A stretch of DNA of 64,000 nt from Terriglobia bacterium. GTDB lineage: Bacteria; Acidobacteriota; Terriglobia; JAJPHL01; JAPKYU01. Position numbers and translations under genes: made by a program. Positions within the stretch are counted from its first letter, which is position 1. Each line of letters starts with the position of its first letter. Positions 9,161 to 56,600 of the stretch are shown here, piece after piece. The notes beneath the pieces are model-generated. The model saw only the letters and a list, made by a program, of their open reading frames with translations, searched no databases and had not been told where the DNA came from. The DNA is taken from assembly GCA_965206645.1 (NCBI GenBank), contig CBDBKE010000004.1, positions 1,541,552-1,605,551 on the forward strand, read 5' to 3'.

Positions 9161-9195
9161 GGAAACGTCCACTGGAGTTCCATTGCTGCGGTTCA

Positions 9196-10164: not shown

Positions 10165-10166
10165 TG

Positions 10167-11827: not shown

Positions 11828-11871
11828 TGCTGTCTACCTCATTCTGCGGACCGGACTGCCGTCGAACGGAT

Positions 11872-12240
11872 TTACGGGGCGTACATGGGATGCAGTTGCA
11901 CTTTGAGACTGTCTCCGCCGTCGCTGCGTGAAGAAATCCCGGCAATCCGTTCGTTGAATACAATCTGCCCTTGCTGCCGATCGGCGAGCTGCGCTGCTAC
12001 GCGCTCCCGCCGGCGGCGTTCGGCTTCTAGTTCTTCCGCCGCTTGCTGCGCGGCCTGGAAGGCTTGCAACTGCGCCATTGCAGCGGTCAACTGTCCCTGA
12101 GTGACCATGCCGGCAACCTGGGCCTGGCCTAACGCGGTGCCGGATACGTTGCTGTTAGACCGCAGTCCGTTGTAGGAATCGAGAGCGGATTTGATCGCCG
12201 CCGACGCCTCTGCGGCGGCATCGGAGACGGCGTAATTTTG
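11872..12240 (-). pseudogene. trbJ: TrbJ-like conjugal transfer protein, C-terminal fragment. The N-terminus with its signal peptide is missing
   Basis: Gln/Ala-rich coiled-coil (QLTAAMAQLQAFQAAQQAAEELEAERRR). The in-frame upstream stretch NYAVSDAAAEASAAIKSALDSYNGL... ends abruptly at ~12240. Confidence 0.45.
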
Positions 12241-12349
12241 GCAGGGGGCATGTCAAGAATTTTTTCCGAAATGTGCCAGGAAAAAACAGGCCACTAGGGG
12301 GGACGCGGGGGTAGGGGCAGTAGGCATAGGTACCGCAATGTTTGCCGCC

Positions 12350-12530
12350 GCACTACGAGATGAACGGCGAATCTGGGGGACGGCCGGCGAATCCGGCCCG
12401 GTTACTGGCCGGTCAAGGAGGTTACCGGTCGGTCAAGAAATAGCGCTCGTCTGTGTGGAATCTCCTGGACTCCGTGAATATCCGAATCGCCAATTTTGTA
12501 GGCCGCCCGATTTGTAGGCCGCCCGACGGG
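12350..12530. repeat. Three successive pairs of short tandem direct repeats: GGCGAATC x2, GTTACyGGyCGGTCAAG x2, TTTGTAGGCCGCCCGA x2
   Basis: Read directly. Lies at the junction between the truncated trbJ and the 3' end of the secretin gene. Confidence 0.5.
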
Positions 12531-12593
12531 CTTTGAGGTTTTCCGTGTCCGCGACTGGATCGGCGGCCGCCCATGAAATTCCGCCGACCGGCC

Positions 12594-14870
12594 TTACTCG
12601 CTCTCCTGTCTGAGCGCCTTGCGCAATTCCTTCAATTTGTCGTGGAACTCCTTGGTGGCCATCTTGGCCTCGCCCATGTCCTTGATCACCCTGGGCGTGA
12701 GCAGGATGATCAGCTCGTTGCGGCTGGTGGAATCGCGGGTGGTGCCGAACAATAGCCCCAAGCCGGGAATGCGCCCTAACAGCGGCACTCGATTGGTGGA
12801 GACGATCCGGGTTTCCGAGATGATGCCGCCCAGGGCAATGGTCTCCCCGTCCTGCACCGTCACCTGAGTGGACACGGAACGCTTCTGGATCGAAGTCAGA
12901 GTACCGCTGCTGGTCGGCACGCTGACTTCCTGGTCGATACGCAACGTCACCAACCCGCTGGGATTGATGCGCGGTGTCACCGACAGGATCACGCCGGTAT
13001 CCCGCCGCTGGAAGGAACTGACAGGTGAGATGGTCCCGAAGGCTACGCCCTGCTGAGTCTGGAGGGGAATCTCCTGTCCTACCTGGATGCGCGCCTCGGT
13101 GTTATTGCTGGCCAAAAGCGTGGGCGCGGAAAGCACCCGTGTGCGTCCCCGGTTCTCCTGGGCATTCAGGAACAGGAACAACTCGCGGCTGCGGCCTATT
13201 AAGGTGCCCACCGAAGCGCTCAGGCCGGCGTTAGGAAACGTCTCCGTCCCGAAAGCGCTGAATTGCCCAACGGGATTCCGGGAGGCGCTGCTGCGCCGCT
13301 GGAGGAACGCTTCGACCCCGAAGGACAGCGCCCCCGATAAGGCGACCTCGTACACCTTGGCTTCAATGAGCACCTGCCGGGGCGCCACGTCCAGCCCCTT
13401 CATGGTCTCAAGGATGACTTCGTAGTCCTGCGGGGTAGCCTGGACGACCAGGGTATTGTTGATGGGGTCCGGAACAATGCGCGCCGGACTCTGCAACATT
13501 CCGCCCGGCACAGCAGCTATGAAGATTTGCCTGGAACCCCGGTACATAGAACCCCGCGATGTTTGGCCCACCCCGCCGACAGGAAACGACACACCTCCGG
13601 GCGTCATTCCTCCACCAGCCGCTCCCATCCCGCCGGGCGGTATCATCCCCGGCGCTGTCATCCCGGGCGCTGTCATCCCGGGCGCCGACGCTCCTGTTGC
13701 CTCCGCACCCATCATCGGCCGAGCTGCTCCGTAAAGGCCCGCCAATACGAAAGCCAACTCCCCCGCCGCCCTGTTTTCCACCTTGTAGGCAAAGTTCTGC
13801 AGTCCCCCACGGCGCACGGGCTTGTCCAGCTTCTCAATCCACTGCTGCACTTCCGAGTACACCTCGGAATTCGGAGTCGCCACCAGGATGGAGTTGATTC
13901 GCTCCAGTGCAATAAACCGCACCGCCGAGCCTTCCTTCGAGAGGGCATACGCCTTGAAGATTTCCTCCAGGTCCTTGACCAGGCTGCTGGCCTGGCTGTT
14001 CTCGATGGCAAACAACCGGACCCGCTGCTGCTCCAGCGCCGAGGTGTCAAACAGGTTCACCATCCCCATTAGCCGCTTCAGGCTGCGGCTGGTGTCGGTG
14101 ATGAGCAGGATGTTGCCCGGCTCGTGGGTCACGATGTGGCCCGCTTCCGACAGGTAGCTGCTCAGGATTTTCGACATATCCGCGGCGGTGACGAAGCTGA
14201 GGGCGACCACGTTCATCACCATGCGGTCATCAGGCGGCAGGCTGGCTCCAGTGGGATCCTGGGTGAGCGGTAGCGGAACACGCGGCGCTCCCTTCAGGGG
14301 CACGATCCGCCAGAAGCTGCCGCTCTGGACGGCCGAGGCCCCGTTGGCCCGCAGGATGGCCTGCAGCAGGGGCAGCAGGTCCTCATGACTCAGGTTGCCC
14401 AGGGTGTTGATGTTCACCACACCCTTCACCCCAGGGTCCACGACATAGTTCATCTTGAGTTCGGCGGCAATGATTCCAATCACCTGAAGCAGGTTGGCAT
14501 TCTCCAGGTGGAGGCTGATGCGCGCCCCAGCTCGCGTCTTCCCCGTTGCCGGTGCCGCTTCCGCCTCCTGCGCGGGAGGCTCTGCCGATGGCTGGTCTTG
14601 AGGCTGGGCAGTCGGTTGTTGCGGTTCCTGAGCCTGAGGCTCTGTCGGTTCCCCCTGCGCTGGCGGCTGGACCGGTTGCTCGGTTTGAGACTGCGCAGGT
14701 GGTTGCGCGGGTTCCTGGACCGGCGCGGCCTTCCTCGGAGTGCTGCCTGCGGCGACCGTCGACATCAGCCCCCAAACTGCTAAAACTAGGACGGCGCTAC
14801 CCAGTTGGCCTCTCAGTACACCGGATGTGAAATTCCGCATCCTCTTCGTGGTTCGTTTTATTCGGCTCAT
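12594..14870 (-). CDS. gspD: Type II secretion system secretin GspD
   Basis: N0/N1 domains and a secretin C-domain (VLSAPTLLASNNTEARIQVGQEIP...ELIILLTPRVI). Signal peptide present. Last gene of the gsp operon. Confidence 0.9.
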   Translation of the reverse strand: MSRIKRTTKRMRNFTSGVLRGQLGSAVLVLAVWGLMSTVAAGSTPRKAAPVQEPAQPPAQSQTEQPVQPPAQGEPTEPQAQEPQQPTAQPQDQPSAEPPAQEAEAAPATGKTRAGARISLHLENANLLQVIGIIAAELKMNYVVDPGVKGVVNINTLGNLSHEDLLPLLQAILRANGASAVQSGSFWRIVPLKGAPRVPLPLTQDPTGASLPPDDRMVMNVVALSFVTAADMSKILSSYLSEAGHIVTHEPGNILLITDTSRSLKRLMGMVNLFDTSALEQQRVRLFAIENSQASSLVKDLEEIFKAYALSKEGSAVRFIALERINSILVATPNSEVYSEVQQWIEKLDKPVRRGGLQNFAYKVENRAAGELAFVLAGLYGAARPMMGAEATGASAPGMTAPGMTAPGMIPPGGMGAAGGGMTPGGVSFPVGGVGQTSRGSMYRGSRQIFIAAVPGGMLQSPARIVPDPINNTLVVQATPQDYEVILETMKGLDVAPRQVLIEAKVYEVALSGALSFGVEAFLQRRSSASRNPVGQFSAFGTETFPNAGLSASVGTLIGRSRELFLFLNAQENRGRTRVLSAPTLLASNNTEARIQVGQEIPLQTQQGVAFGTISPVSSFQRRDTGVILSVTPRINPSGLVTLRIDQEVSVPTSSGTLTSIQKRSVSTQVTVQDGETIALGGIISETRIVSTNRVPLLGRIPGLGLLFGTTRDSTSRNELIILLTPRVIKDMGEAKMATKEFHDKLKELRKALRQESE

Positions 14871-14883
14871 CTCAGATTCTGCC

Positions 14884-15681
14884 TCATTTGGTTTTCTGTG
14901 CCGCCGGGAGATCCTCATACCAGGTCTGTACACCAAATGGCGTTACCCGGTCGTATCTCTTCCGGTTACCTTCGACGGTGACGGTTAAATAGCGATCCCC
15001 GGTGGAGGAGCCGGTCGCTGGGGCGACAGCGGGAGCGGTGGCGGCTCCTGGGGTGGGTGTAGACGCCGGCCCTGCAGAAGAAGCTGAAGGGGCAGCCGGA
15101 ACAGCGGTCAACACCTGGTCGGCCGCGGTGCCGGCCGGGCGGGCGGGCCGGACTGCGGCCCGCCCGGCGGCCTGGCGCACGTTTTCGGCTGACTCGTAGA
15201 CATCAATGGTAGTCTTTTGGCCCTCGAATTCGATGACCACCTGGTGCTCGGCGATTTCCGCTACGCGATAGCCACCGATTTCATCGCCCACCTTGAGCCG
15301 GCGGAATGTGGCCTGCCTGGCCTGTTGCGGCTCGGCCATCAGGGCCACCGGACCGCTGCCGAGGTTCAAGGTTCCAATCACCAAGGGGACCGGCGGCCGG
15401 ACCTTGGATACGCTTGCCAACGCCTGGTCGTTATTGCGGTCGGGGCTGAACAGGTTGCGGGTGAGCAGCACGGAGTAGCTGTCCGGGACAGCCGCCAGTC
15501 CAGCTTCAGCCATGCCTGCTTTGGACACACCTGGCCCGGGGGTGGCTGCTGAGGTCACAAACTGCTTGTAGCGGGCATGATTGCTCTGCCAGGCATTGTG
15601 GATGGCGGCGGCAACCCACATCGCCAGCGTCAAGAGGGCTAGGTTGAGATAGGTTATCGGTTTGCGCATGCTTTCTCTCAC
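14884..15681 (-). CDS. gspC: GspC/PilP-like secretin-interacting protein
   Basis: N-terminal TM (LNLALLTLAMWVAAAI), a Pro/Ala linker, and a beta-rich HR-like segment VGDEIGGYRVAEIAEHQVVIEFEGQKTTIDV. Sits immediately upstream of the secretin. Confidence 0.55.
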   Translation of the reverse strand: MRESMRKPITYLNLALLTLAMWVAAAIHNAWQSNHARYKQFVTSAATPGPGVSKAGMAEAGLAAVPDSYSVLLTRNLFSPDRNNDQALASVSKVRPPVPLVIGTLNLGSGPVALMAEPQQARQATFRRLKVGDEIGGYRVAEIAEHQVVIEFEGQKTTIDVYESAENVRQAAGRAAVRPARPAGTAADQVLTAVPAAPSASSAGPASTPTPGAATAPAVAPATGSSTGDRYLTVTVEGNRKRYDRVTPFGVQTWYEDLPAAQKTK

Positions 15682-16340
15682 GCTTTGGGAGTTGGCGCGG
15701 GCTCGGCGAACATCAACCCGCGAATCACCATTCGCACCGCCACCATCTTTTGCGGCTTTTGTGGTTTTTGTGGCCGGCCGGGCCGCGAGGGCAGCGCCCT
15801 AATGGAGAGCTGATCCAGCGCCAGCACCTTGCGACTGGCGTGGGCAGCCAGCAGAAAACTCGTGAGCTGGTCCAGCCTGCATTGGAACGACAGCGACAAG
15901 GGCACGACGTTATAGCTCGCCCCGGCGACCTTGAGAACCCGCACCGGCCGGAAGGCGGCGTTGCGCATTTCCATGCCCTGCTTCGCCATCAGTTGCTTGA
16001 TCACTTCCTGCAACTCGGCCGCAGCCAGGGCCGACGTGCTGCTGCTCAGCAGGCCTTTCTCGGCTTCAGCCAGACGAGCCTGCATTTCCTGAAACTCCTT
16101 TTTCTGATCTGCGGCCAGGGCTACAAGTCGCCGGTATTTGCGCAGGGTCTTCTCCTTCAGTGGCAGCGAGGCACGGAGCTTCTCGGCGGGGTCCATGACG
16201 GGCAAGACAAGCAAATCCAGCAGCAGGAACAGAGCAGTGGCAGCTGCCAGCAAGAGCAGAGCCCGCTGGTCTCGAGCGCTCAAAGAACGCAAGAAAGACG
16301 CAGCTGTCGCTGGCTCCCTCTTCCTGCCTCCGTTAGTCAT
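15678..16340 (-). CDS. gspM: GspM/PilO-like inner-membrane assembly protein
   Basis: Single TM followed by a coiled coil (KKEFQEMQARLAEAEK) and a periplasmic domain. Position after gspL. Confidence 0.55.
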   Translation of the reverse strand: MTNGGRKREPATAASFLRSLSARDQRALLLLAAATALFLLLDLLVLPVMDPAEKLRASLPLKEKTLRKYRRLVALAADQKKEFQEMQARLAEAEKGLLSSSTSALAAAELQEVIKQLMAKQGMEMRNAAFRPVRVLKVAGASYNVVPLSLSFQCRLDQLTSFLLAAHASRKVLALDQLSIRALPSRPGRPQKPQKPQKMVAVRMVIRGLMFAEPAPTPKA

Positions 16341-17883
16341 GACTGGCCACCTCCTCCGCTCGTGCCGGCGTCTCCCGCAACCGCATCCGGATCTGGAAGG
16401 CCTCCCGCCCTTGTTTGCTCTTGGTGATCGCGGTGATGAATTCCGGCTGTTGGAAATGCGGCGACTGATTGATGGCCTGTAGAATGCCGGAAGCGGATTG
16501 GGCTTGCCCGGAGGCCGTCACCTGGTTATCCTCAAACTGGAGTGTTTGCAGCCAGGCCGCATCGGGAACCAGGCGAGTCAGTTCCTTCCACGCCTCGAGC
16601 CTGAGCGCGATATCCTGCCGCTGGCCCTGTAGCAGATCCCATTCCAACAACAGCGCCTGGTGGCGGGAATTCAGCTGTTCCAGACGCTCCACCTGGGGCT
16701 GCAGCTTGCTGATCTCCGAGTTCAACCAGGAGGAATAGAAGCGGTCCTGCACCCATGTGGTTGCGAGCCAGGCAGCGCCGAGCAACAGCACAAGTACCAC
16801 CAACGCATAGGCCGAGGTATGTGTCCAGCGGGAGCGCCAGTGGGAACGCCAGTGAGAGCGGTAGCGCTTCTCCGCCGGCAGCAGATTCCAGCGCAGGCCA
16901 GCTGGGGGAGCCATCAACGGGAGGCGGAGCTCGAGGCCCGGCAAGGCCGCTGCGTAAGCCACAAGATGCTCCTTCAGCCGGAACTCTGCCGGCCCCGCCT
17001 CGGGGGTGACCACGGGAATACCCTCTGCCGGGGACCCGCTCGACGGCGCAGAGTCTCTCACCGCCGCCTGTTCTCTGACTTGCTGTTCTCTGATTTCGGG
17101 TTCCGGCGCGATGTCTTCGCCGCTTTCCAGCATCTGCGGGCTATCCTGGGGATCGAGTCGCAACTCGGCCGCGCAAAGCTCCACTTCGCGCTGCAACGAG
17201 GACCCGGCCGCAACTTCTTTGGAATAGAACGCGCCATCGGGCGCGACCCCCAGCAGTTCCACCACCTGCCCGCAGTGATCCAGCAACACCAACGGGCGGC
17301 GCAGTCCAGGCATGTTCCGGGATTGATTCAAGGAAGCCCCGCGCAGCGCCTGGTACAACACAGCCGTGGAGAGGGTAAAGCCGGCCACGTCCACGCCCGC
17401 CTGGCCGAACCACTGGTAGAGCTGATCGAGCGCACTCTTCTCCACAAGCGCCACAGCCACCCGCAGCCGCCTTCCGAGGCCCTCCTCCGAGGCGCCGGTC
17501 CCATTGCCCGCGCCGCGCGCAGGCGATTCGGGCAGCAGCGCGTAGTCGAAATAGACGCTGCCTTCCTCGAAGGGGTGGAGCTGATCTACCTGGTAGGCCA
17601 CCGTCTGGCCCAGTTCTCGCCCAACTTCGGGGGGCAATTCCAGCGTTCGCACCAGGCCGGCTCCGCGCGGGAGCGCCACCAGCGCGCTGGTCGTCAACGC
17701 ATGATTCTCTTCGCGGAAGCGCCGGTACTGCTGGGCCACCTCGGCCACCGGCCGGGTGCGGAAATCCTCAATCCGGAGGAATCCGCTGACGCGCAGGCGA
17801 TGCCCGCGGCCGCGCAGGGAGACGGCTTCCAGGTGACTCCCCCGAATCGCAATGCCGATGCTGGTCCCCAGGTGGACGGTCAT
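16333..17883 (-). CDS. gspL: GspL-like protein: cytoplasmic actin-like (PilM-like) domain, TM, then a PilN-like periplasmic coiled-coil domain
   Basis: 516 aa. The N-terminus is ATPase-fold-like, followed by TM YALVVLVLLLGAAWLATTWV and a C-terminal coiled coil. Operon position matches gspL. Confidence 0.6.
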   Translation of the reverse strand: MTVHLGTSIGIAIRGSHLEAVSLRGRGHRLRVSGFLRIEDFRTRPVAEVAQQYRRFREENHALTTSALVALPRGAGLVRTLELPPEVGRELGQTVAYQVDQLHPFEEGSVYFDYALLPESPARGAGNGTGASEEGLGRRLRVAVALVEKSALDQLYQWFGQAGVDVAGFTLSTAVLYQALRGASLNQSRNMPGLRRPLVLLDHCGQVVELLGVAPDGAFYSKEVAAGSSLQREVELCAAELRLDPQDSPQMLESGEDIAPEPEIREQQVREQAAVRDSAPSSGSPAEGIPVVTPEAGPAEFRLKEHLVAYAAALPGLELRLPLMAPPAGLRWNLLPAEKRYRSHWRSHWRSRWTHTSAYALVVLVLLLGAAWLATTWVQDRFYSSWLNSEISKLQPQVERLEQLNSRHQALLLEWDLLQGQRQDIALRLEAWKELTRLVPDAAWLQTLQFEDNQVTASGQAQSASGILQAINQSPHFQQPEFITAITKSKQGREAFQIRMRLRETPARAEEVASHD

Positions 17884-17926
17884 TTCCGATACGCTCGCTT
17901 CTTCAAGTCCTCGTTCATAGCCCAGT

Positions 17927-18919
17927 TCACAAAATGACCCGCTGCTCTTCTACTGCCTGTTCATCCCAGGCCACTAGCTCGGTTCGGCCGTTGGCTTCCC
18001 GGCGGAAGATGGCGCGCACCGACGCTCGCGTGGCTGAGCCGCGGAGCCGGCCCGTGGCAGTCAGGGTGAACAGGTCCGAGATTCGATAGATTCCAAGGTG
18101 GGGCAAAGCCTCTGCGGGGATCGAAATTGGCAACTCGGTCAGGCTTTGGTAGAGCTTTTCCCGGCGTCCGGCGACGACTGCACGTACCCGCTCCTGGTCC
18201 ATGCCCGGCACGCTCAGCAACGCCTCGTAGGGAGCGTAGTTCACATCCAGCCTTGCGAAGTTCCCATACACCGTCAGCAGGCGGTTGAACCCGCCCCGCC
18301 GAACCAGCCGGTCATCCGCGTCGCGCTCCATCCAGCCGTAGAACAACTCTGGCGTGACCCCCTTGACCAACAGCAGTTCTTCGACCCGCTGGAAGGGCTG
18401 GTGCGCTGCCTGGTAGGGCTGCGCCAGACCGGCGTAAAACTGGTCAAAGACGCTCCCGACGCTCGAGGTGGCCGGCGCACGCCAATCGGCAATGGCCCGA
18501 GTGATCTCCCGGACGTCCATGTTCCCCACCCCGGCGGCTTGAAACAGCGTTTGCAGCCGCTCCACCGGGGCGGTGTTGACGTTCAGCTTGCCTGCTTCGG
18601 AGGCCACCCGGACGCGCGCCGTCCCGGTAGCGTAGGAAAACTCCAGGTAGGGCCGAGTGGGTTCGTAAAGCAATTTTTGTTCCGCGTCCCGCAAGCCGGG
18701 GGTTTGTACCAAGTAGAGCGCCTGTTCCAGAGCCCCGCGCGCCAGGAAGCGGCCTTGCTCAGCTTCCAGGCGGTAGCGGGTGGCGGCCAGCTCGGTTCGC
18801 ACCGAAAGAGCCAGCGCCAGTGCTACCAGCGACAGTGCAGCCGTCAGCCACATGACGAGCAACAAGACGGCGCCTTGCTCCGAATTCGAGCTCGGACTCC
18901 GGCCCACCGACTTTGGCAT
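17927..18919 (-). CDS. gspK: Type II secretion minor pseudopilin GspK
   Basis: Start MPKSVGRSP...GAVLLLVMWLTAALSLVALALALS matches the GspK N-terminus. GspK-like domain with helix-hairpin-helix region. The longer ORF to 19126 is an artefact. Confidence 0.75.
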   Translation of the reverse strand: MPKSVGRSPSSNSEQGAVLLLVMWLTAALSLVALALALSVRTELAATRYRLEAEQGRFLARGALEQALYLVQTPGLRDAEQKLLYEPTRPYLEFSYATGTARVRVASEAGKLNVNTAPVERLQTLFQAAGVGNMDVREITRAIADWRAPATSSVGSVFDQFYAGLAQPYQAAHQPFQRVEELLLVKGVTPELFYGWMERDADDRLVRRGGFNRLLTVYGNFARLDVNYAPYEALLSVPGMDQERVRAVVAGRREKLYQSLTELPISIPAEALPHLGIYRISDLFTLTATGRLRGSATRASVRAIFRREANGRTELVAWDEQAVEEQRVIL

Positions 18920-18921
18920 TT

Positions 18922-19644
18922 TCACCGGCTCGCTCCGGCGATGCTCAAGCGCGCATAGAGGGGCACCGGCTCCAGGCCCCTCCACATGGCTTCTTTCGCG
19001 CCCACCTGTAGGGCGACTGCCGAGGGCATCTCCCTGCGATTCAATAACGACCAGGAAGATACCCACCGTGCCAGATCGGGCCGTTCGTGCCGGTACTGGA
19101 ACCGGCACTCGCGGAGTCCTTCCCACAGCAGCAGGGCCCGCTCTGTGTCAAAGGGCCGCAGCTGCGGTTGGTCCCCTTCCGGAGTGCGGAGCAAGTTCAC
19201 CACCACGCCAGCCAGCTGCTCGCCGTCCAAGGCCTGCCGCTCCTCGAGCCACAGCTTCCAGGTCCGGTCACGTTGCCGCTGGGCGAAGTAGTCGGCCACC
19301 ACGATGCCTCCCCGCCCGCGCTCCAGCGCCGAATACGAGGTGAGAAAGACCAGGCGGCGCTCCTCGGCAAAGAAGAACGGCATCTGCTGGCGCCGGTTGG
19401 GTGACTCCACCACGATGTTCCGCAGCAGGTGATTGGAAAGCTGGAAATGTAGAATGTCCTCCACCTGGGTCACCCGGCGCAACTGCAGAACCGCCTGCTG
19501 CCCCTTCTCCCAGGCCCGCAGGCCTATCCGCAGCGAGGTGAGAGCCGCGACAGCTACCAGGCCGGCGATGGTGGTGGCGGCCATCAGCTCCAGCAGCGTC
19601 AGTCCCGCGCTGCGTTGCTTACTGCGCTGGCAGTTGTGGTTCAT
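18922..19644 (-). CDS. gspJ: Type II secretion minor pseudopilin GspJ
   Basis: Prepilin N-terminus AG|LTLLELMAATTIAGLVAVAA. Size and order (after gspI, before gspK) fit GspJ. Confidence 0.7.
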   Translation of the reverse strand: MNHNCQRSKQRSAGLTLLELMAATTIAGLVAVAALTSLRIGLRAWEKGQQAVLQLRRVTQVEDILHFQLSNHLLRNIVVESPNRRQQMPFFFAEERRLVFLTSYSALERGRGGIVVADYFAQRQRDRTWKLWLEERQALDGEQLAGVVVNLLRTPEGDQPQLRPFDTERALLLWEGLRECRFQYRHERPDLARWVSSWSLLNRREMPSAVALQVGAKEAMWRGLEPVPLYARLSIAGASR

Positions 19645-20086
19645 ATTTACAGGTCTCGAATGTGGCGCGTTGCTCTCCGCTGGCGCCTTTCCAGAACACC
19701 GTCAGGGTCACCAGCACCAGAGGCGGCAGCGCCACCTGCTGTTCGGCGGAGGCGGCAGGATTCCAGCGCCGAATTTCCGCCTCCCAGCGAAACGTTTCAT
19801 CCCACCGCCCGGCAACGCGACCGGGCACCAGCGTCTGCTCTATGAGCAGGCGGTTCAATTGCGCGCGCCCCACCAGCGTCGCTTTCTCGTAAGCCTCCGT
19901 GCGCGCCAGGTTGCGCAGCGAGCCGGAAAGCCCGCTCATCAACGCGGCTACAGCAATGCCCAACAGCGCCATGGCGACCAACACTTCCAGCAAGGTGAAC
20001 CCATGAGTTGGAGGTTGCCGGACCTGGATGGAGGCTCTTCCTCCACCGCTGCTTCCAACATCTCGAACCGCAGGCCCAAAACCCAT
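19619..20086 (-). CDS. gspI: Type II secretion minor pseudopilin GspI
   Basis: Prepilin motif HG|FTLLEVLVAMALLGIAVAAL, ~155 aa. Start at 20086 overlaps the gspH stop. The upstream in-frame extension is an artefact. Confidence 0.7.
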   Translation of the reverse strand: MGFGPAVRDVGSSGGGRASIQVRQPPTHGFTLLEVLVAMALLGIAVAALMSGLSGSLRNLARTEAYEKATLVGRAQLNRLLIEQTLVPGRVAGRWDETFRWEAEIRRWNPAASAEQQVALPPLVLVTLTVFWKGASGEQRATFETCKYEPQLPAQ

Positions 20087-20601
20087 CAGCGCTCCCACTC
20101 CACGCGGGGCAGTGCCGTCAGCACATCGAACTTCACCGTGACGGCGCGGCCGCGGGCATTGATCAGCCGCAGTCTCACTTGGGGCGCCCCCCCGTTGGGC
20201 GGGAAAATAAAGGTGCGCATACGTCTTGGCTCGACCACGATTTCTGGAGGCAACTGCCAGCTCCGCCGGTAGGACGGCTCCCCGCTGGCTGTGGCCCCTC
20301 CCAGGTCCTCCAACTCGACCCGGCGCCGTTCCGAATCCACCGTCACCTGGCAGACGGTCTGTTGACGCAAGGCGCGCACGCGGGCGTAGCGGAAGGTGTT
20401 CGCCAGCCGGTCGGCGGCCGACTTCAGCCGCAACGTATCCAGACCGGCAGTCACGCTGGGGAACACGATGGCTCCCAGCACGGCGATGATCGTCAGCACG
20501 ACCACCATCTCCAGCAGCGTGATGCCGCGACAATGGAGACAGGCCTCGCGGCCTGTCCGGACCGTCGTGACACTTAACCTAGCGCGTCCAGCTCGCCACA
20601 T
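20086..20601 (-). CDS. gspH: Type II secretion minor pseudopilin GspH
   Basis: Prepilin motif RG|ITLLEMVVVLTIIAVLGAIVFP, ~170 aa. Order G-H-I-J-K. Confidence 0.65.
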   Translation of the reverse strand: MWRAGRARLSVTTVRTGREACLHCRGITLLEMVVVLTIIAVLGAIVFPSVTAGLDTLRLKSAADRLANTFRYARVRALRQQTVCQVTVDSERRRVELEDLGGATASGEPSYRRSWQLPPEIVVEPRRMRTFIFPPNGGAPQVRLRLINARGRAVTVKFDVLTALPRVEWER

Positions 20602-21076
20602 CGCTGTCTTCGCCCTCTCCGCCTTCTCTCCCGTCAGCACCGTGGGAAAGGATGTCGGGCTCTTCGCCGTGCTCGCCCGGGTACCGGTAGACATAGGGCT
20701 GCCCCCAGGGATCGTCCGGGATGTCCTGGGGCAGGTAAGGACCGTCCCAGCGCTCCACTTCGGCGGGTTTGACCCGGAGAGCTTCGAGTCCCTGCTCGGT
20801 GGTGGGAAACCTCCCAGTGTCCAGCTTGTAAATGCCCAGGGCGGTCATGAAGCCGTTCATTTGTTCCCGAGTCGCGGTCTGCTTGGCAGCGCTGACTTTC
20901 TTCCACATGCGTGGCAGCACCAGCGCGCTGAACAGGCCGATGATGGTCACCACCACCAGCAGTTCAATCAGCGTGACCCCGCGCTCACCGGCCTGGCCGC
21001 CGAGGCGCGGAGGTACAGAGGTAAGGTTTTTTGCCGGTACGGTTGCGACTTCACCCTCAGATTGGTTTTTCTTCAT
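20579..21076 (-). CDS. gspG: Type II secretion major pseudopilin GspG
   Basis: RG|VTLIELLVVVTIIGLFSALVLP with the GspG hallmark C-terminal region (GPYLPQDIPDDPWGQPYVYRYPGEHGE..DILSHGADG). AGAGGAG RBS before the ATG at 21076. Confidence 0.9.
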   Translation of the reverse strand: MKKNQSEGEVATVPAKNLTSVPPRLGGQAGERGVTLIELLVVVTIIGLFSALVLPRMWKKVSAAKQTATREQMNGFMTALGIYKLDTGRFPTTEQGLEALRVKPAEVERWDGPYLPQDIPDDPWGQPYVYRYPGEHGEEPDILSHGADGREGGEGEDSDVASWTR

Positions 21077-21094
21077 GGGGTTGCTCCTCTGCGC

Positions 21095-21170
21095 CTCTGT
21101 GTGTCTATGTCGTATACCTCTGTGTCGCATGCCGCTGTGTCGTATGCCTCCGCGTCTTATGTCCCTGCGG
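21095..21170. repeat. Four imperfect direct repeats of ~TGTGTCGYATGCC in the gspF-gspG intergenic region
   Basis: Read directly: tgtgtctatgtcgtatacc / tgtgtcgcatgcc / ctgtgtcgtatgcc / cgtcttatgtccc. Confidence 0.4.
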
Positions 21171-21175
21171 CTCTC

Positions 21176-22390
21176 CTACAGCGGGACATCATTGATGCTG
21201 ACGATGCCCAACAACATAGACAGCACCATCCCCCCGACCAGCAACCCCATGACCAGGATCACCAGCGGCTCAAACAGGGCCGTGGCGCGCTTGATCGCAT
21301 CCCGGGTGTCTTTGTCGTAAATATCAGCCATGCGCTGGAACATGGTATCCAACCTGCCAGTCTCTTCACCGACGGTGAGCAGGTGTCCCGCCAAGGGTGG
21401 GAAGGCACCGGTCTTCCGCAGCGGCCCGGCCAGACCCTCGCCGCGCTGCACGCCCTTGGCGACCGCCGTCAGCGACTCTTCCATCACAACGTTGCCCAGC
21501 AGCCCCTTCACGATTTTCAAAGACTGCAGCAGCGGCACGCCGTTGGCCAGCAGCGTGGCCATGGTGCGGGCGAACCGCGCCGTCTCCACTTTGCGGAACA
21601 CGTCGCCGGCCAGCGGCAGCTTCAGCTTCCACGCGTGCCAGCGCCGCCGGCCGGCGGGAGTACGTACGTAGTAACGGGCGCCAACAATCAGGGCCGCGAG
21701 GACCAGCGCCGCCATCCAGCCGTAGCGGTGGATCAGGTCGCTGGCCGCCAGCAGCAGGTAGGTGGGCGTGGGCACGGGGACGCCCGATTCGGAAAAGACC
21801 TGCGCGAATCTGGGAATCACGTAATGCATCATCACAAAGATCGAGCCCACCCCGACCAGCGCCAGCAGCAGCGGGTAGATCATCGCCGAGATCAGGTAGC
21901 CGCGCAGCTCGTCGGAGGAGCTCTCCAACTCCGCCAGCCGCTCTAGCGAAACGCCGAGAGCACCAGACGCCTCACCGGCGCGGATCATGTTCCGGTACAG
22001 ATCGGAAAACACCTGCGGGCGCGTCTCCAGGCTGTCGCCCAGCGACTTGCCCCCCTTCAGCTCCTGCAGGACGTCGGTAATGACGCTGCGGAATGTTTTC
22101 CGTTCCGTCAGCTCGGCGCAAATGGAAAGCGCGCGGTCCAGCGGCAGCCCGGAATTGACCAGCGTGGAAAGCTCCTGGGTGAAGAAGAGCCGGTCACGCG
22201 AGCGCACGCGCCCCCGGGTGAGCCACGGCAGCGGCAAGCCCGCCGCGGCTGGCTGCCTGCTACCGATGTAGACCGGCACCAGCCCCCGTCGCTGCAACTC
22301 GCGGGCGATGGCCTTCTCAGTCGCTCCGGAAAGAGCGCCCTGAGCGGGTTTGCCCGCCATCGTGACCGCGCGATAGAAATACTCAGGCAT
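21176..22390 (-). CDS. gspF: Type II secretion inner-membrane platform protein GspF
   Basis: ~400 aa with two GspF/PilC-type repeats and 3 TM segments. Follows gspE. Confidence 0.9.
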   Translation of the reverse strand: MPEYFYRAVTMAGKPAQGALSGATEKAIARELQRRGLVPVYIGSRQPAAAGLPLPWLTRGRVRSRDRLFFTQELSTLVNSGLPLDRALSICAELTERKTFRSVITDVLQELKGGKSLGDSLETRPQVFSDLYRNMIRAGEASGALGVSLERLAELESSSDELRGYLISAMIYPLLLALVGVGSIFVMMHYVIPRFAQVFSESGVPVPTPTYLLLAASDLIHRYGWMAALVLAALIVGARYYVRTPAGRRRWHAWKLKLPLAGDVFRKVETARFARTMATLLANGVPLLQSLKIVKGLLGNVVMEESLTAVAKGVQRGEGLAGPLRKTGAFPPLAGHLLTVGEETGRLDTMFQRMADIYDKDTRDAIKRATALFEPLVILVMGLLVGGMVLSMLLGIVSINDVPL

Positions 22391-22399
22391 CTTTCAAAT

Positions 22400-22476
22400 T
22401 GACTCATTGACGACTGGTTCATTGACGATTGTCAAAATCAGCCTTCCACAATCGTCAATGACTCAATCGTCAATCT
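22400..22476. promoter_or_regulatory. Nested inverted repeats built from four ATTGACGA/TCGTCAAT units. The inner 12-bp perfect IR is CATTGACGATTG...CAATCGTCAATG
   Basis: Read directly in the gspE-gspF intergenic spacer. Confidence 0.45.
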
Positions 22477-22488
22477 AACAATCTTCCC

Positions 22489-24126
22489 TCACACGTCCTG
22501 GGTCACCCGAACCACTTCCTCCACTGTGGTCACGCCCCGATAGACCTTGTCCCAGCCGTCCTCTTTCAAGGTGCGCATTCCGTTGCTTTGGGCAGCGGCG
22601 GCCAGCATCTTGGCGTCGGCGTTCTCGACCATCAGGCGGCGAATCTCGTCGTTCACATCCATCAGCTCAAGGATGCCCTGGCGCCCGCGGTAGCCGATGT
22701 GGGAACAGCGATCGCAGCCGGCGCCGCGATACACCGGTTGGTCGAGCGCCGCCTGGCGCTCATCCACCACCCGGCAGTGCGGGCAAATCACGCGCACCAG
22801 TCGCTGGGCCAGCACCGCCAGCAGCGAGGAGGAGATCAGGTAGTTCTCCACGCCCATGTCGGTCAGCCGGGTGACGGCGCTGGGCGCGTCATTGGTGTGC
22901 AGGGTGGAGAAGACCAGGTGGCCGGTCAGTGCGGCGCGGATGGCGATCTCGGCCGTTTCCAGGTCCCGAATCTCCCCGACCATGATCACGTCCGGGTCCT
23001 GGCGCACGATGTGGCGCAGGCCGGCGGCAAACGTCAGCCCGATCTGCGGATTGACGTGGATCTGGTTGATGCCGTCCATCTGGTATTCCACCGGGTCCTC
23101 GATGGTGATGATCTTCTTGTCGGGCAGATTGATGCGCTTCAGGACCGAGTACAGAGTGGTGGACTTGCCGCTGCCAGTCGGTCCGGTCACCAAGAAAATC
23201 CCATGCGGCTGCGAGCTGAGGCGCTCCACGCGCGTCATCATCGATTCGGGAAAGCCCAGGCTGGGGAGTTCATAGAAGTCGCCGGCGGAGCGGTCCAGCA
23301 GGCGCATCACGACGCTTTCACCGTGGAGGGTAGGCAGGGTGGAGACGCGCAGGTCAAGCTCCTTGCCCAGCGTCCGCAGCTGAATGCGGCCGTCCTGGGG
23401 CAGGCGGCGCTCGGCGATGTTGAGCCGCGCCATCAGTTTCAGGCGCGAGATCACCGCCGCGCGCAACTCGCGCGGCGGCGCGTCCACGTTATACAGCACG
23501 CCGTCAATGCGGTAGCGCACGCGGAACTGCTTCTCGAAGGGTTCCAGGTGGATGTCGGAAGCGCGCTGTTCGACGGCCCGCGCGATCAGGTTGTTCACCA
23601 GCCGGATCACCGGAGCTTCGCTGGCCATGTCGCGCAACTGCTCGATATCCTCGGTCTCGACGCCGACGGCGGCCTCTCCGCTCTCGGAGCCAGCGCCCTC
23701 CTCCTCGCCCGGGAAGTATTTCTCCAGAGCCGCAAGAATCTCCGTCTCGGGCGCCAGCAGCGCGCGCACGTTCAGCTTGGTGTAGAGTCGGACCGCGGAG
23801 ATGGTTTCAAAGTCGAGGGGGTCGGCCATGGCCAGCGTCACGGTGGAATCCTCCACCACTAGGGGCAGAAAACGGAACTGGCGCATGAAGCGGGCCGAAA
23901 GGCCCTCGATGGCAGGCGACACGGCTGGAAACTCGGCTGCCGGAACGATGGGGATTTCCAGCTGTTCGGAAAGCGCGGCCAGCACGTCGCGCGCGGCCAC
24001 GTAGCCCAGGTCCGAGAGGATCTTGCCCAGCTTGTCGCGCCGCATCGACTGCACTGCCAGGGCTTTGTCGAGTTCCTCGGCCTCCAGCTGCTCTCGCTCC
24101 ACCAGGATTTCGCCCAGCCGCCGCAT
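22489..24126 (-). CDS. gspE: Type II secretion ATPase GspE
   Basis: Walker A GPTGSGKSTTL, Asp box, His box and a C-terminal tetracysteine motif (CPHC...CDRC). N-terminal N1E domain. Confidence 0.9.
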   Translation of the reverse strand: MRRLGEILVEREQLEAEELDKALAVQSMRRDKLGKILSDLGYVAARDVLAALSEQLEIPIVPAAEFPAVSPAIEGLSARFMRQFRFLPLVVEDSTVTLAMADPLDFETISAVRLYTKLNVRALLAPETEILAALEKYFPGEEEGAGSESGEAAVGVETEDIEQLRDMASEAPVIRLVNNLIARAVEQRASDIHLEPFEKQFRVRYRIDGVLYNVDAPPRELRAAVISRLKLMARLNIAERRLPQDGRIQLRTLGKELDLRVSTLPTLHGESVVMRLLDRSAGDFYELPSLGFPESMMTRVERLSSQPHGIFLVTGPTGSGKSTTLYSVLKRINLPDKKIITIEDPVEYQMDGINQIHVNPQIGLTFAAGLRHIVRQDPDVIMVGEIRDLETAEIAIRAALTGHLVFSTLHTNDAPSAVTRLTDMGVENYLISSSLLAVLAQRLVRVICPHCRVVDERQAALDQPVYRGAGCDRCSHIGYRGRQGILELMDVNDEIRRLMVENADAKMLAAAAQSNGMRTLKEDGWDKVYRGVTTVEEVVRVTQDV

Positions 24127-24731
24127 CAGAATTGCCGTAAGCTGATCACCCTGGCCAGCCCTGCCGACCCGGGCTTGCGCCCCCCATCTTGCAGCTCCAG
24201 CAGGGCCTGGCGTTGCGCCTGCAGGACCACCTGGCCGGGAATTTCCGGGTAAGGCCGGGGATTGAACAGGTGAATGACCAAGGCCAGATTCTCCTCCGCG
24301 CCCAGTTGCGTTAGCCCGGCGCTTTCAGCCAGAAGCAGATCCCGGAGCCTGGATTGCAACTGTTGCAGCCTCTTCCGCTTCTGCTCTCGTTCGGTTTCCA
24401 GCTCCTTCTCCGAGAAGGCAGTCGGCGCAAAGGGGGAAATAAAGCGCATCGGGTAGAGGTTCACTTCCGCATGAACCATGACTCCGAATCCGGCGAGATA
24501 GACGCTCTTCGGTTCCTGAAGAACGGCAAACGGCCGGTTCCCGAACATCTGCTGCAGGGAAGTGTTTACAGCGCGCTCCAATTGCAGCATCTGCCGCTTC
24601 AGTTCCGCTTGCTTCTTGCCAGTCGCAGTGGCCTGCGACTGCGGGACGGCAACCCACAGCGCCGCCCCCACGGCGAGCAGAGTCGCCAGATAAATCCGCA
24701 ATCCGAAATTCGCAATCTGCAATCGTTTCAT
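24126..24731 (-). CDS. Secreted hypothetical protein with signal peptide, co-operonic between the anti-sigma factor and gspE
   Basis: N-terminal signal MKRLQIANFGLRIYLATLLAVGAALWVA. No recognisable domain. Its stop overlaps the gspE start. Confidence 0.5.
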   Translation of the reverse strand: MKRLQIANFGLRIYLATLLAVGAALWVAVPQSQATATGKKQAELKRQMLQLERAVNTSLQQMFGNRPFAVLQEPKSVYLAGFGVMVHAEVNLYPMRFISPFAPTAFSEKELETEREQKRKRLQQLQSRLRDLLLAESAGLTQLGAEENLALVIHLFNPRPYPEIPGQVVLQAQRQALLELQDGGRKPGSAGLARVISLRQF

Positions 24732-25417
24732 GGCCGTTCACCTTTCTCCGCCGGCAGACGGCTGGCTACCATCTCCAGCGCCAGACGATTCCGGTCGGCA
24801 TCCTTATAAAAAATGGTCTGGGTCCGCTCAAAGTACCTCATTTGTTCGGCCAGCGAAGCGAACGCTGCCCGTTGGCGTCGTTCCAGTTGCGCGGACGCGG
24901 TTCCGATGAGCGCCTCGGCTTCCGCCTGCTGCCGCGCTTCGCTCTGGCGAACGGCAGCGTCCACCAGCCCCGCCACTTGCTCGCGGCTCAAGCCCGCTGA
25001 TACCGGGCCGGCGGATGCAGAGCCAGTCGCCGGCGCCGCTCTCTGCTGGGAGGCGCCGAAGGCAATCTCCCACCGTTCCTGCTCCAGGACGACCCGCACG
25101 CGGGCCAGCGCCAGTGCCCCAACCAGCAGAGCGACAGCCGCGGCCACTCCCACCGGCACAGCAAAGGCGCGCCGCCATAATCCACTGCGTCCGAACAGAC
25201 CTGCCTCCTGGCTTGCGCCCACGAATGCAATGCGCCGTGGCACTTCCTCCTGCGGCAGGCCCTGGACGAGAAGCTTCCGCGCCAGGTCCAGATCGGTCAG
25301 CTGGGCCCGGCAGGCATCGCACACCTGCAGGTGCTCCTGTACCTGTTTCCGTTCGACCGGACCGGCCTCGGCCAGCGCCAGGTCCATTAGTATTTGTTTT
25401 GCTTGTCCGCACGTCAT
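24728..25417 (-). CDS. Anti-sigma factor (zf-HC2 type) with one transmembrane segment
   Basis: HLQVCDACRAQL zinc-binding motif, then TM AVPVGVAAAVALLVGALALA, then a periplasmic domain. Immediately downstream of the ECF sigma gene. Confidence 0.75.
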   Translation of the reverse strand: MTCGQAKQILMDLALAEAGPVERKQVQEHLQVCDACRAQLTDLDLARKLLVQGLPQEEVPRRIAFVGASQEAGLFGRSGLWRRAFAVPVGVAAAVALLVGALALARVRVVLEQERWEIAFGASQQRAAPATGSASAGPVSAGLSREQVAGLVDAAVRQSEARQQAEAEALIGTASAQLERRQRAAFASLAEQMRYFERTQTIFYKDADRNRLALEMVASRLPAEKGERP

Positions 25418-25496
25418 GACTCACCTCCTGCCCGCCGTAAGGGCAGGCAGCGCAGCCTCTCCGGCTGGACAGCAACAACGCCTGTCCAGGGGGTGG

Positions 25497-26147
25497 CTAG
25501 TGGTTGTGAAAGGCAGCCCGCGTCGCCACATCCTCGCCGAGAGCGTGCTTCAGTTGCTCGAACCCGGCGTAGACGCGGGATTTCACTGTGCTGAGGGGAC
25601 AGGAGAGGATTTCGGCAATTTCGGCGAACTTAAAGCCGTGAATCACCTTGAGCAGCAGGGCCTGGCGTTGCTCGAAGGGAAGCTCCTCCAGGGCGCGGGC
25701 GACTATCAACTCCAGCTCCAGCGGGTACAGGCGCGGACCAGCGCCCAATACCACCTGAGCCTCGCCCCGCGAGGTAATTTCCCTTTCGCCCTCCTCCGGC
25801 CAACCGTCCGAATCAGTCCGGGCCGAATCAGCCCAGGCCGAATCAGCCTGGGGGCGGCGTCCGTCAGTGCGGAACTTCGAGCAGGCCAGGTTATGCGCGA
25901 TCCGGAAGAGCCACTGGGGGAACTTCTCGGCATCGCCGAGCTTGACCAGGCCGCGGTAAGCCTTCAGAAAGGCTTCCTGCGCCAAGTCCTGGGCGTCTTC
26001 CCGGTTGCCGGTGGTACGCAGTAAGTAGTTGTACAGCTTCTTTTCCCAACGGGATACAAGGACGTTATAGGCGTCCACCTCCCCGTGGGCCGCGCGGTCC
26101 ACCAGCTCGCTATCCTCTGCCGTCCGAAACAGCAAATGGGCTCCCAC
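25497..26147 (-). CDS. ECF (sigma-24 / RpoE-like) RNA polymerase sigma factor
   Basis: Region 2 (DAQDLAQEAFLKAYRGL) and region 4 (EELPFEQRQALLLKVIHGFKFAEIAEILSCPLSTVKSRV). Contains an internal 15-nt x3 tandem repeat in the linker (25804-25850). Confidence 0.85.
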   Translation of the reverse strand: MGAHLLFRTAEDSELVDRAAHGEVDAYNVLVSRWEKKLYNYLLRTTGNREDAQDLAQEAFLKAYRGLVKLGDAEKFPQWLFRIAHNLACSKFRTDGRRPQADSAWADSARTDSDGWPEEGEREITSRGEAQVVLGAGPRLYPLELELIVARALEELPFEQRQALLLKVIHGFKFAEIAEILSCPLSTVKSRVYAGFEQLKHALGEDVATRAAFHNH

Positions 26148-26542
26148 TTGGTCAGACGCCGCCGAAGCTCAAAAAGTCGAACCCGCCGGCCGAAAGGTTG
26201 ATAGGGAGTATACCACGCGCCCGATCAGCCCACGGGGCGTTCCAATGCCCGATTCTGGATCCCCGAAGGTCACCGCGGAAGGCCTATGTATAGCCGTTAG
26301 TTGGCTTTGTATTGCAGTACATCCCCGGGTTGCAGTTTCTGATAGAGTGGGAGGGTGAGCCGAACGCTGCCAACGCTTTCGCCTGGGGTGGCCACTGGGC
26401 ACTGGCAAGCCGGAGGCTGCGGTCGCGATGGGCCGCCCGTTCAGGAAGCAAGCTGAGGAAGCACCAGTGAGTGAGCCGATGAAACGCCTGCCTCCCCCAG
26501 CGCATCCATATTAGGAAGCCCCTTAGGAAGCATGGAGAGATC

Positions 26543-27445: not shown

Positions 27446-27680
27446 CGCTTGACCTACCTGGCAGCAGTGTTCACCTCTTTACGGTTGCGGCTCGCGTTTG
27501 CTCCAGGCTCGGGTTGCTCCATCTGGTGGGCCGCGCACGGGTACTTGGCATGAGCTACAGTCGTCGGCGATATACTAGACGGGAACGGGACTCGGGCAAA
27601 GCAGCTCGAGATATTGTGAGGTCACAGGCGGGGGGGCATACTCCCGCCGGAGATTTGCCTGTGCCGGTGTCGGGGGCCGG

Positions 27681-56589: not shown

Positions 56590-56600
56590 AGGGGGCAACT

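Follow-up and report, generated by a model that had tools for sequence, protein, structure and literature searches.

Positions 12594-26147 of a 64-kb stretch of DNA from a Terriglobia bacterium (contig CBDBKE010000004.1 of assembly GCA_965206645.1, positions 1,541,552-1,605,551, forward strand; hereafter the window) contain 14 open reading frames (ORFs), all of which are read from the minus strand. They encode, in this order, a sigma factor of the extracytoplasmic function (ECF) type, an anti-sigma factor, a protein of 201 amino acids (24126-24731) for which we use the working name p201, and the type II secretion system (T2SS) components GspE, F, G, H, I, J, K, L, M, C, and D. In an earlier note on this DNA the set had been described as a complete T2SS joined to a sigma/anti-sigma/periplasmic protein module. 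All 14 ORFs and their order proved to be real, with coordinates that were exact or nearly so.

Gene identities were assigned with curated hidden Markov models (HMMs) from Pfam and NCBIfam and by fold comparison. The ATPase gene gspE (22489-24126) scored 642.2 with TIGR02533 (cut-off 630.25), and its product matched Pfam MshEN and T2SSE, the MshEN-type domain being located at the N terminus. For gspF (21176-22390), encoding the inner-membrane platform protein, two Pfam T2SSF domains were found, and the best match was TIGR02120 with 387 bits, which is under the cut-off of 424. The gene of the major pseudopilin, gspG (20579-21076; TIGR01710, 144.8 versus 88.85; Pfam T2SSG and N_methyl), is followed by those of the minor pseudopilins, which are gspH (20086-20601; Pfam GspH, 25.1 versus 21, and N_methyl; best NCBIfam match XpsH), gspI (19619-20086; N_methyl; XpsI with an E value of 2.9e-19 and GspI with 36 bits, both under their cut-offs), gspJ (18922-19644; N_methyl; T2SS protein J PRK08808 with an E value of 7.7e-12, under cut-off), and gspK (17927-18919; Pfam T2SSK_1st, 53.5 versus 26.2), whose product is diagnostic of a T2SS. 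The product of gspL (16333-17883) combines a PilN-like C terminus (Pfam PilN, residues 433-501) with a PilM-like N terminus that was detected only weakly (TIGR01175 pilM, residues 8-253, E value 1.8e-5, under cut-off). For gspM (15678-16340), the model NF040576 GspM_XpsM was passed with 79.4 versus 60, and Pfam T2SSM_b matched as well. The protein encoded at 14884-15669 has an N-terminal membrane helix, an HR beta-domain at residues 96-156, and a small C-terminal beta-domain without a PDZ domain; it is a GspC-type protein, in which the HR domain is the part that contacts the secretin. The secretin gene gspD (12594-14870) scored 423 with TIGR02517 (cut-off 351.35), and its product contains Pfam N0, three Secretin_N, and Secretin domains.

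These results support the assignment as a T2SS, which the earlier note had proposed, rather than as a type IVa pilus. GspD, GspE, GspG, and GspM were above curated cut-offs, whereas PilB (TIGR02538, 588.6 versus 675.65), PilQ (217.5 versus 284.35), PilC, and PilA stayed under their cut-offs and under the corresponding Gsp models. A pilT gene was not found in the cluster. The description of the T2SS as complete went too far, since a prepilin peptidase (GspO/Peptidase_A24) was found neither in the cluster nor among 40 further ORFs of the window. By analogy with the Xps system of Xanthomonas, GspO is expected to be encoded elsewhere in the genome.

The genes are tightly packed. As had been remarked before, stop and start codons overlap at several junctions, namely between the anti-sigma gene and p201 (ATGA, 4 nt), p201 and gspE as well as gspH and gspI (TGATG, 1 nt each), gspL and gspM (8 nt), gspG and gspH (23 nt), and gspI and gspJ (26 nt). 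With the start codons used here, the gaps J/K, M/C, and C/D amount to 2, 8, and 13 nt, and longer gaps are present between the sigma and anti-sigma genes (79 nt), gspE and gspF (98 nt), gspF and gspG (99 nt), and gspK and gspL (43 nt). A consensus scan of positions 11500-27500 revealed no sigma-70-like promoter sites, and terminator-like sites occurred at chance rate only and were without exception intragenic. Rfam and tRNA scans gave no match near the locus.

The two longest gaps contain repeats. On the minus strand of the E-F gap (22391-22488), four copies of ATTGACGATTG, two per arm, form an inverted repeat for which a long hairpin is predicted (-44.6 kcal/mol, z -7.2); a U-tract does not follow. 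The repeat could be an insert resembling repetitive extragenic palindromic sequences or miniature inverted-repeat transposable elements, an mRNA stabiliser, or an operator. The F-G gap (21105-21164, minus strand) holds about four copies of a tandem 15-nt repeat, which on the plus strand reads CTGTGTCG[CT]ATGCC.

To see how far this arrangement extends, one genome per GTDB species was scanned with the GspE protein of the window, which yielded 80 loci labelled Terriglobia, Bryobacterales, Bryobacteraceae, Solibacteraceae, or Acidobacteriota. One of these encodes a GspE 96% identical to that of the window, and in the others the identity is 67-72%. Synteny was determined by tblastn with the window proteins; gene starts in these loci are approximate. 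In all of the ~75 loci with enough upstream sequence, the sigma gene lies ~1.7 kb before gspE and is followed on the same strand by the anti-sigma gene, a p201 homologue, and the T2SS genes in the order of the window. The only loci in which the sigma gene was missing were those whose contig stops too near gspE. Overlaps of 4 bp join the sigma and anti-sigma genes in 48 of 66 loci and the anti-sigma and p201 genes in 58 of 63 loci; between p201 and gspE, most loci have a gap of no more than 13 nt, and none of these gaps is longer than 97 nt. From gspE to gspC, the median gaps are no longer than 6 nt, with E-F as the variable junction. The recurrence in ~75 species-level genomes places the gene arrangement far beyond chance, and together with the 4-bp overlaps it shows that the T2SS is tied physically and evolutionarily to the sigma/anti-sigma/periplasmic protein module. 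The initial observation of a sigma-linked T2SS operon is thus confirmed, and the link is stronger than it first appeared.

The C-D gap differs between lineages, having a median of 401 nt and being long in most loci outside the clade of the window, compared to 13 nt in the window itself. In locus L020 this gap (18649-19131) contains an ORF for a 160-residue protein with a signal peptide.

The long E-F and F-G gaps of the window and the stable hairpin in the former raise the question whether the sigma module and the T2SS genes are adjacent but separate units, that is, neighbours by descent in which gspE, gspF, and gspG to gspD have promoters of their own and the sigma factor regulates other genes. 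An E-F gap of more than 60 nt in 23 of the 80 loci and the three operons predicted for the Xps genes (PMC11981180) would be in line with such an organization. Both window gaps are, however, lineage-specific insertions, as they are far shorter in loci L009 (28 nt for E-F and 4 nt for F-G) and L012 (53 and 48 nt). The type of repeat found in the E-F gap is shared with L006 and absent from L009 and L012, which marks it as a lineage-specific insert, and the F-G spacer of close relatives measures 4-48 nt compared to the 99 nt with the tandem repeat in the window. The p201/gspE junction, with its 1-nt overlap in the window and a gap of mostly 13 nt or less elsewhere, leaves no room for a promoter or terminator, and no exception to the synteny occurred in the sample, even among the species with a GspE only 67-72% identical. 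Also the lack of detectable sigma-70-like sites within the unit and the recurrence of a sigma-type motif within gspK, described below, argue against separate units. We regard this explanation as very improbable and, in view of the p201/gspE junction and the universal synteny, as the weakest of those considered.

In locus L013, the E-F gap was found to be extended to 528 nt by an insertion that has AACGCCGAT-type repeats at its flanks and encodes a peptide, which we take to resemble the GxxExxY protein family. This insertion marks the E-F junction as an insertion hot spot.

The sigma gene (25497-26135, minus strand) codes for a protein of 212 amino acids. The ORF reaches up to a GTG codon at 26147, from which the earlier note had let the gene start; the gene stands, and its most likely start is TTG at 26135, which is preceded by a Shine-Dalgarno sequence (GGGAG, 26141-26145) that is conserved in the relatives as GGAGCC. 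The only Pfam domains found within the 212-216 residues are Sigma70_r2 and Sigma70_r4_2, with no region 1 or 3, as is characteristic of ECF (group 4) sigma-70 factors, and the score with the NCBIfam model for ECF sigma factors, TIGR02937, was 69.5 bits (cut-off 42.9). With 111.9 versus a cut-off of 236.15 for the RpoE equivalog model TIGR02939, the protein is RpoE-like and not an RpoE orthologue. The closest solved structures are those of AlgU (6in7), sigmaE (1or7), and SigW.

The anti-sigma gene (24728-25417, minus strand) encodes a protein with a zf-HC2 domain (24.1 versus 22.2), a single membrane helix at approximately residues 86-105, and behind it a helical periplasmic tail of ~124 residues. 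Among 30 orthologues compared, residues C3, H29, C33, and C36, which form the pattern C...HxxxCxxC, are invariant in all 30, a PRRIAFVSD..FEP stretch is conserved ahead of the membrane helix, and the helical periplasmic tail comprises 90-135 residues. A profile built for the protein matched RslA (3hug_B, 5.8e-6), DdvA, and RsiW. With its HxxxCxxC motif and a fourth ligand, the protein is by sequence a predicted class I zinc-binding anti-sigma factor. FecR or TonB-receptor domains were not detected in the regulatory module with Pfam and NCBIfam, which sets it apart from cell-surface signalling systems of the FecI/FecR and VreI/VreR type.

The third gene of the module (minus strand) encodes p201, an exported or membrane-anchored periplasmic alpha/beta protein with an N-terminal hydrophobic signal or anchor sequence. 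No match to p201 was found in Pfam, NCBIfam, or PDB sequences, and its structural model, although predicted with a pLDDT of 88, showed no convincing similarity to a known fold. The earlier suggestion of an RseB-like protein is borne out by the position of the gene and not by the fold, because the model matches neither LolA nor RseB and lacks the two-domain LolA-like architecture that defines the RseB/MucB family. An identical p201 sequence is found in long-read metagenomes, on contigs reaching 1.4 Mb. Its orthologues, with identities of 20-93% across two alignments, all have an N-terminal hydrophobic leader and share conserved blocks such as G.YL.GYGvvF..EvNL...PF. An HMM search of 1.84 billion representatives returned 670 clusters at an E value of at most 1e-3 and 395 at 1e-10, and among the 150 matches listed nearly all clusters have a length of 160-220 residues. 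Two distant members that were looked up, located on independent metagenome contigs, both occur in the sigma/anti-sigma/p201/gspE context, as do all family members whose context was examined. By these sequence comparisons, p201 represents a new, previously unannotated family.

Alternatively, p201 could be an accessory protein with a part in the structure or assembly of the T2SS, functionally replacing GspN, GspS, or GspB and encoded first by chance, in which case the regulatory module would consist of the usual sigma/anti-sigma pair. None of GspN, GspS, GspA, and GspB was detected in the cluster by HMM scans, p201 directly abuts gspE in most loci, and some orthologues carry a lipobox-like cysteine after the signal peptide. 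Most orthologues, including that of the window, have no lipobox, however, and no Gsp accessory protein resembles p201 in sequence or convincingly in fold. Moreover, the best-conserved junction of p201 is the 4-bp overlap with the anti-sigma gene, and we therefore consider an accessory role unlikely.

An unbiased k-mer count in the 300 nt upstream of the sigma genes yielded GACTTTT and GCGTCTT. After alignment these k-mers form the bipartite element [AG]ACTTTT-N13-CGTC, which is followed by the GGAGCC Shine-Dalgarno sequence and the TTG start codon and has identical spacing in 59 of 60 matching loci. When 1.45 Mb of locus DNA was searched on both strands, this pattern occurred 60 times upstream of sigma genes and 7 times elsewhere, 5 of the latter being within gspK. 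With a weight matrix, the site was detected ahead of the sigma gene in all but one of 76 loci (75 of 76) and also in L212 and L213 (32.7 and 27.1 bits), two contigs obtained via distant p201 relatives. In the window, the putative promoter (26152-26179, minus strand) consists of a -35 element CGACTT (26174-26179), a 17-nt spacer, and a -10 element TCTGA (26152-26156). It scored 32.8 bits compared to 1.7 bits for the runner-up in the entire 64 kb and is thus a single site. The conserved element CGACTT-N17-TCTGA resembles the published AlgU consensus GAACTT-N16-17-TCtgA (PMC3819740), which fits the fact that AlgU and sigmaE are the closest relatives of the sigma factor. A conserved promoter ahead of the sigma gene, present as the sole copy in the window, is what would be expected if the sigma factor drives transcription of the whole unit.

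Two promoter elements had been suggested previously. For a GGAAC-N16-CGT promoter, GGAAC is present at 26239-26243, and as there is no CGT at the proper spacing and no conservation, this candidate had to be abandoned. An extended -10 box, TGGTATACT, is located one base from the position proposed, at 26207-26215 on the minus strand (TATACT, 26207-26212), and coincides with a conserved feature: a TAnAnT box resembling a -10 element, in most cases TACACT or TAAACT, was present in 42 of 60 loci and usually precedes the ECF -35 element by 14-23 nt. It is a candidate for a basal promoter. We read the upstream region as a housekeeping promoter for basal expression and, behind it, an ECF promoter under autoregulation, an arrangement that would correspond to that of many ECF operons. 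We also considered that the bipartite motif might be an RNA hairpin or terminator, which is unlikely as the spacer varies in sequence at fixed length and the T-run precedes the GC-rich part. A scan for the promoter pattern across metagenomes was uninformative, giving chance matches from unrelated habitats with the sigma factor or a T2SS in 0 of 120 among the matches listed.

Further copies of the motif were noticed in individual loci. In L037, a 32.6-bit copy stands directly in front of an ORF (1042-1617, minus strand) for a 188-residue protein with a signal-peptide or lipobox-like N terminus; this ORF lies 8.4 kb upstream of gspE and is a possible regulon member outside the operon. A strong matrix match in L020 at 19034 (minus strand) is antisense within an ORF.

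A second copy of the promoter motif was detected within gspK in 52 of the 67 loci containing this gene (matrix threshold 14 bits), for example in L074 at 15412, L072 at 15391, and L030 at 15464 (loci within L014-L091). It lies on the coding strand ~500 nt before the gspK stop codon, has the same spacing as the motif upstream of the sigma gene, and reads TCCG[T/A]CTTTTCG-N10-CATGCGTC[T/C]TTT. The motif encodes the conserved GspK peptide P-S/T-F-R-x-R-H-A-S-F, and the codons used for this peptide deviate strongly from the background: the first serine is encoded by TCT in 35 of 35 cases (background 4.5%), phenylalanine by TTT in 38 of 41 (28%), alanine by GCG in 41 of 41 (42%), and histidine by CAT in 30 of 41 (31%), while TCG and AGC, which together account for 61% in the background, are used for the second serine in 0 of 41. 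This skewed codon choice indicates selection on the DNA sequence itself, inside the T2SS genes, and the gspK copy probably represents an embedded promoter for gspL-M-C-D. In the -35 element of the gspK copy, the second position is usually taken by T, compared to A upstream of the sigma gene, so that the gspK site may be the weaker one.

Based on these results, we propose as the probable explanation, held with some reserve, that an ECF sigma operon with autoregulation carries, as its downstream part, the 11 structural genes of an Xps-type T2SS. The housekeeping-type promoter TGGTATACT would supply basal expression, and the RpoE/AlgU-like sigma factor would be kept at the inner membrane by the single-pass HxxxCxxC anti-sigma factor, whose helical periplasmic tail might cooperate with the co-translated p201. 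A signal from the envelope or from outside would then inactivate the anti-sigma factor, either by regulated proteolysis or via its zinc/thiol site, by analogy with RseA, RsiW, and RslA. The freed sigma factor would bind its own promoter CGACTT-N17-TCTGA and transcribe the sigma, anti-sigma, and p201 genes and subsequently, by read-through past the E-F hairpin, gspE to gspD, so that secretion capacity would climb with sigma activity. A further promoter of this type within gspK might boost gspL-M-C-D in the majority of sister lineages. The signal is presumably extracytoplasmic, and a single transcript covering the whole unit is plausible. As the layout and the sigma-type promoter recur in ~75 related species, secretion capacity in this group is probably switched by a signal instead of being always present.

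Several points weigh against this proposal. The strong E-F hairpin and the F-G repeats could attenuate read-through or hide promoters outside the model used in the scan, and a prediction of three operons exists for the same gene order in Xanthomonas (PMC11981180). The weight matrix was trained on the very sites that it scores and is therefore partly circular. With the transcription start that is predicted, the leader would measure only ~10 nt. In the clade of the window (WIN, L006, L007, L009, L012, L013, and L089), the gspK copy is absent and the peptide at this position is QPYQAAHQPFQ. All 80 loci entered the sample through the similarity of their GspE (identity of 67% or more) and thus represent one orthologous system and not all acidobacterial T2SSs, and as the loci are related, the counts are not independent events.

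Finally, most of the transcription could stem from the conserved -10 box of housekeeping type that precedes the ECF promoter. This box is also compatible with a different role of the module, in which the gsp genes are expressed mainly from the housekeeping promoter and sigma factor, anti-sigma factor, and p201 report on the state of the secretion machine or its cargo. In this case p201 might, for example, be a T2SS substrate or be docked on GspC or GspD, and its export or sequestration would free the sigma factor to transcribe substrate genes elsewhere as well as its own operon, a logic known from the flagellar protein FlgM and from ExsE of type III secretion. The occurrence of p201 in this context only, its translational coupling to both the anti-sigma gene and gspE, and the motif copy 8.4 kb away in L037, which stands before the gene of a small secreted protein and hints at outside targets, would fit such a feedback sensor. 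Substrate genes were not identified, however, and the ECF-type motif in gspK argues that the T2SS genes themselves are direct targets, which makes this role improbable in our view. A further-reaching version, to which we assign a still rather low probability, is that p201 is a new class of secretion-coupled regulator that is exported by or docked on the T2SS and tells the anti-sigma factor whether the machine is assembled, idle, or jammed, with the sigma factor closing the feedback loop and the gspK promoter tuning the ratio of outer- to inner-membrane parts. If true, this loop would be the type II counterpart of the FlgM and ExsE systems.

In addition to the proposed control of the operon by the sigma factor, the GspE protein might provide a second level of regulation. 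Its MshEN-type domain at residues 2-54 (window positions 23965-24123), of a kind that binds cyclic di-GMP, scored 46.8 with NF053729 (residues 3-55, cut-off 38), and PF05157 was present in every GspE orthologue whose precomputed Pfam annotation was shown. The two 24-residue motifs of this domain were read against the published motif (PMC5013675). Motif 2 (KLGKILSDLGYVAARDVLAALSEQ) fits except for a lysine in place of arginine and one serine at a hydrophobic position, motif 1 (RLGEILVEREQLEAEELDKALAVQ) has a glutamate where glycine is conserved, and the spacer comprises 5 residues. Cyclic di-GMP may add a post-translational layer of control via GspE.

The regions flanking the operon contain genes of a different kind. 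Upstream, two LolA-like exported proteins are encoded on the plus strand (26543-27445 and 27681-28604), divergently from the sigma promoter region. They were considered as part of the module and rejected, since they are kept only in the close relatives L006, L007, L009, and L012 and missing from the remaining loci. The homologue of the first of these genes (26543-27445) in L006 has a copy of the ECF motif (24.8 bits) directed towards it. Directly downstream of the secretin gene, type IV secretion or conjugation genes follow (5790-11827 on the minus strand, and 395-2273), encoding TrbL/VirB6, VirB8, an unassigned protein of 322 residues, a TraG/TrwB-type coupling protein, and a VirB11-like ATPase, and then two Mutator-family transposase ORFs. 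This region probably represents a mobile element that has integrated and now borders on the T2SS operon. Between the stop codon of the secretin gene and the type IV secretion genes, a spacer of 766 nt contains several short tandem direct repeats (12289-12519), including two copies each of the 18-nt sequence GGTTAC.GG.CGGTCAAG (12400-12437) and of the 16-nt sequence CGCC..ATTTGTAGGC (12488-12519), which may mark the boundary of the mobile element. A second mobile region is possible at 55114-57734, where an IS1-like transposase ORF and the gene of a 500-residue HTH_3 protein are located beside tRNA-Asn (58614-58688) in an otherwise housekeeping stretch (era, ybeY, phoH, serS, lptE).

T2SS genes are usually regarded as constitutive or loosely regulated, and to our knowledge the matching of secretion capacity to need is poorly understood beyond a few proteobacteria. 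The Bryobacterales (subdivision 3), an entire order of Acidobacteria that are abundant in soil and peat, appear to have placed a T2SS under a dedicated ECF sigma switch that is defined by a recognisable promoter, a zinc-finger anti-sigma factor, and the p201 family. The promoter motif offers a handle for reading regulons from genomes and metatranscriptomes, candidate sensor proteins are available, and the motif in gspK provides an example of a putative promoter maintained within a coding sequence through codon choice. If the T2SS exports polymer-degrading hydrolases, which is speculative, the signal of the switch would bear on soil carbon turnover.

The regulatory module resembles rpoE-rseA-rseB(-rseC) and algU-mucA-mucB in the order of sigma factor, single-pass anti-sigma factor, and periplasmic third protein, in having a sigma factor whose nearest solved relatives are AlgU and sigmaE, and in the similarity of its promoter to GAACTT-N16-17-TCtgA. 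In systems of the rpoE/algU type, autoregulation from a promoter ahead of the sigma gene is the rule. Unlike the anti-sigma factor of the window, RseA and MucA are not known to have a zinc-binding HxxxCxxC motif. Further differences are that the sigma factor is far below the RpoE equivalog cut-off, that p201 does not have a LolA/RseB-like fold, and that the operon continues into a secretion machine and not into rseC or mucCD. The anti-sigma factor itself resembles the membrane-spanning class I zinc-binding anti-sigma factors of the pairs RslA-SigL, RsiW-SigW, and DdvA-DdvS, with which it shares the C...HxxxCxxC domain and the single-pass topology; it differs from them in having a tail without a recognised domain and in having a T2SS and a periplasmic protein of its own as partners.

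The secretion genes have their counterpart in the Xps system of Xanthomonas, which is arranged in the order xpsE-F-G-H-I-J-K-L-M-C-D, with the prepilin peptidase encoded outside the cluster and no pilotin, GspA, or GspB (PMC11981180). The final position of gspC and gspD, taken in the earlier note as a departure from the classical gspC-O layout, is therefore no novelty, as the order of all 11 genes is exactly that of Xps and the prepilin peptidase gene is missing from both clusters. The similarity extends to the proteins, since XpsH, XpsI, and GspM_XpsM were the best or passing NCBIfam models and GspC contains an HR domain. Xps differs in that no sigma, anti-sigma, and p201 genes stand in front of it and that its genes are predicted to form three operons; on the side of the window, the MshEN-type N terminus of GspE, the weakly detected PilM/PilN-like fusion in GspL, and the acidobacterial host are different.

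A link between an ECF sigma factor and secretion also has precedents. In Pseudomonas aeruginosa, the vreA-vreI-vreR genes (PUMA3), encoding among others an ECF sigma factor together with an anti-sigma factor that spans the membrane, are located immediately upstream of the genes for the Hxc T2SS, which are upregulated when the sigma factor VreI is active or the anti-sigma gene is deleted (PMC7035377). VreI was assigned to the iron-starvation (FecI-like) group of ECF sigma factors, and the receptor-like protein VreA is encoded in its operon as well (PMC7035377). The vreAIR-hxc region is thus a known case in which an ECF sigma factor controls the T2SS genes beside it. It differs from the system described here in that transcription requires PhoB and low phosphate and that vreAIR forms an operon of its own with separate promoters for the regulon, whereas in the window the sigma factor is RpoE/AlgU-like, the anti-sigma factor has the HxxxCxxC motif without a FecR match, the third protein belongs to a new family, and the T2SS genes are packed into the sigma unit. 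The ECF reclassification paper describes a type III secretion cluster as the conserved context of the group ECF32/HrpL, which is the only secretion-linked group mentioned in its main text (PMC7826278). This case involves a different type of secretion system, and HrpL has no cognate anti-sigma factor in its operon and is subject to a two-component or enhancer-binding cascade. Literature searches for an ECF sigma-T2SS link in Acidobacteria, with ECF group tables outside their scope, gave nothing beyond VreI/Hxc. ECF-controlled secretion and the Xps-type T2SS are therefore both known, and what is new is the clade-wide sigma-T2SS operon with an identifiable promoter and a dedicated periplasmic protein family.

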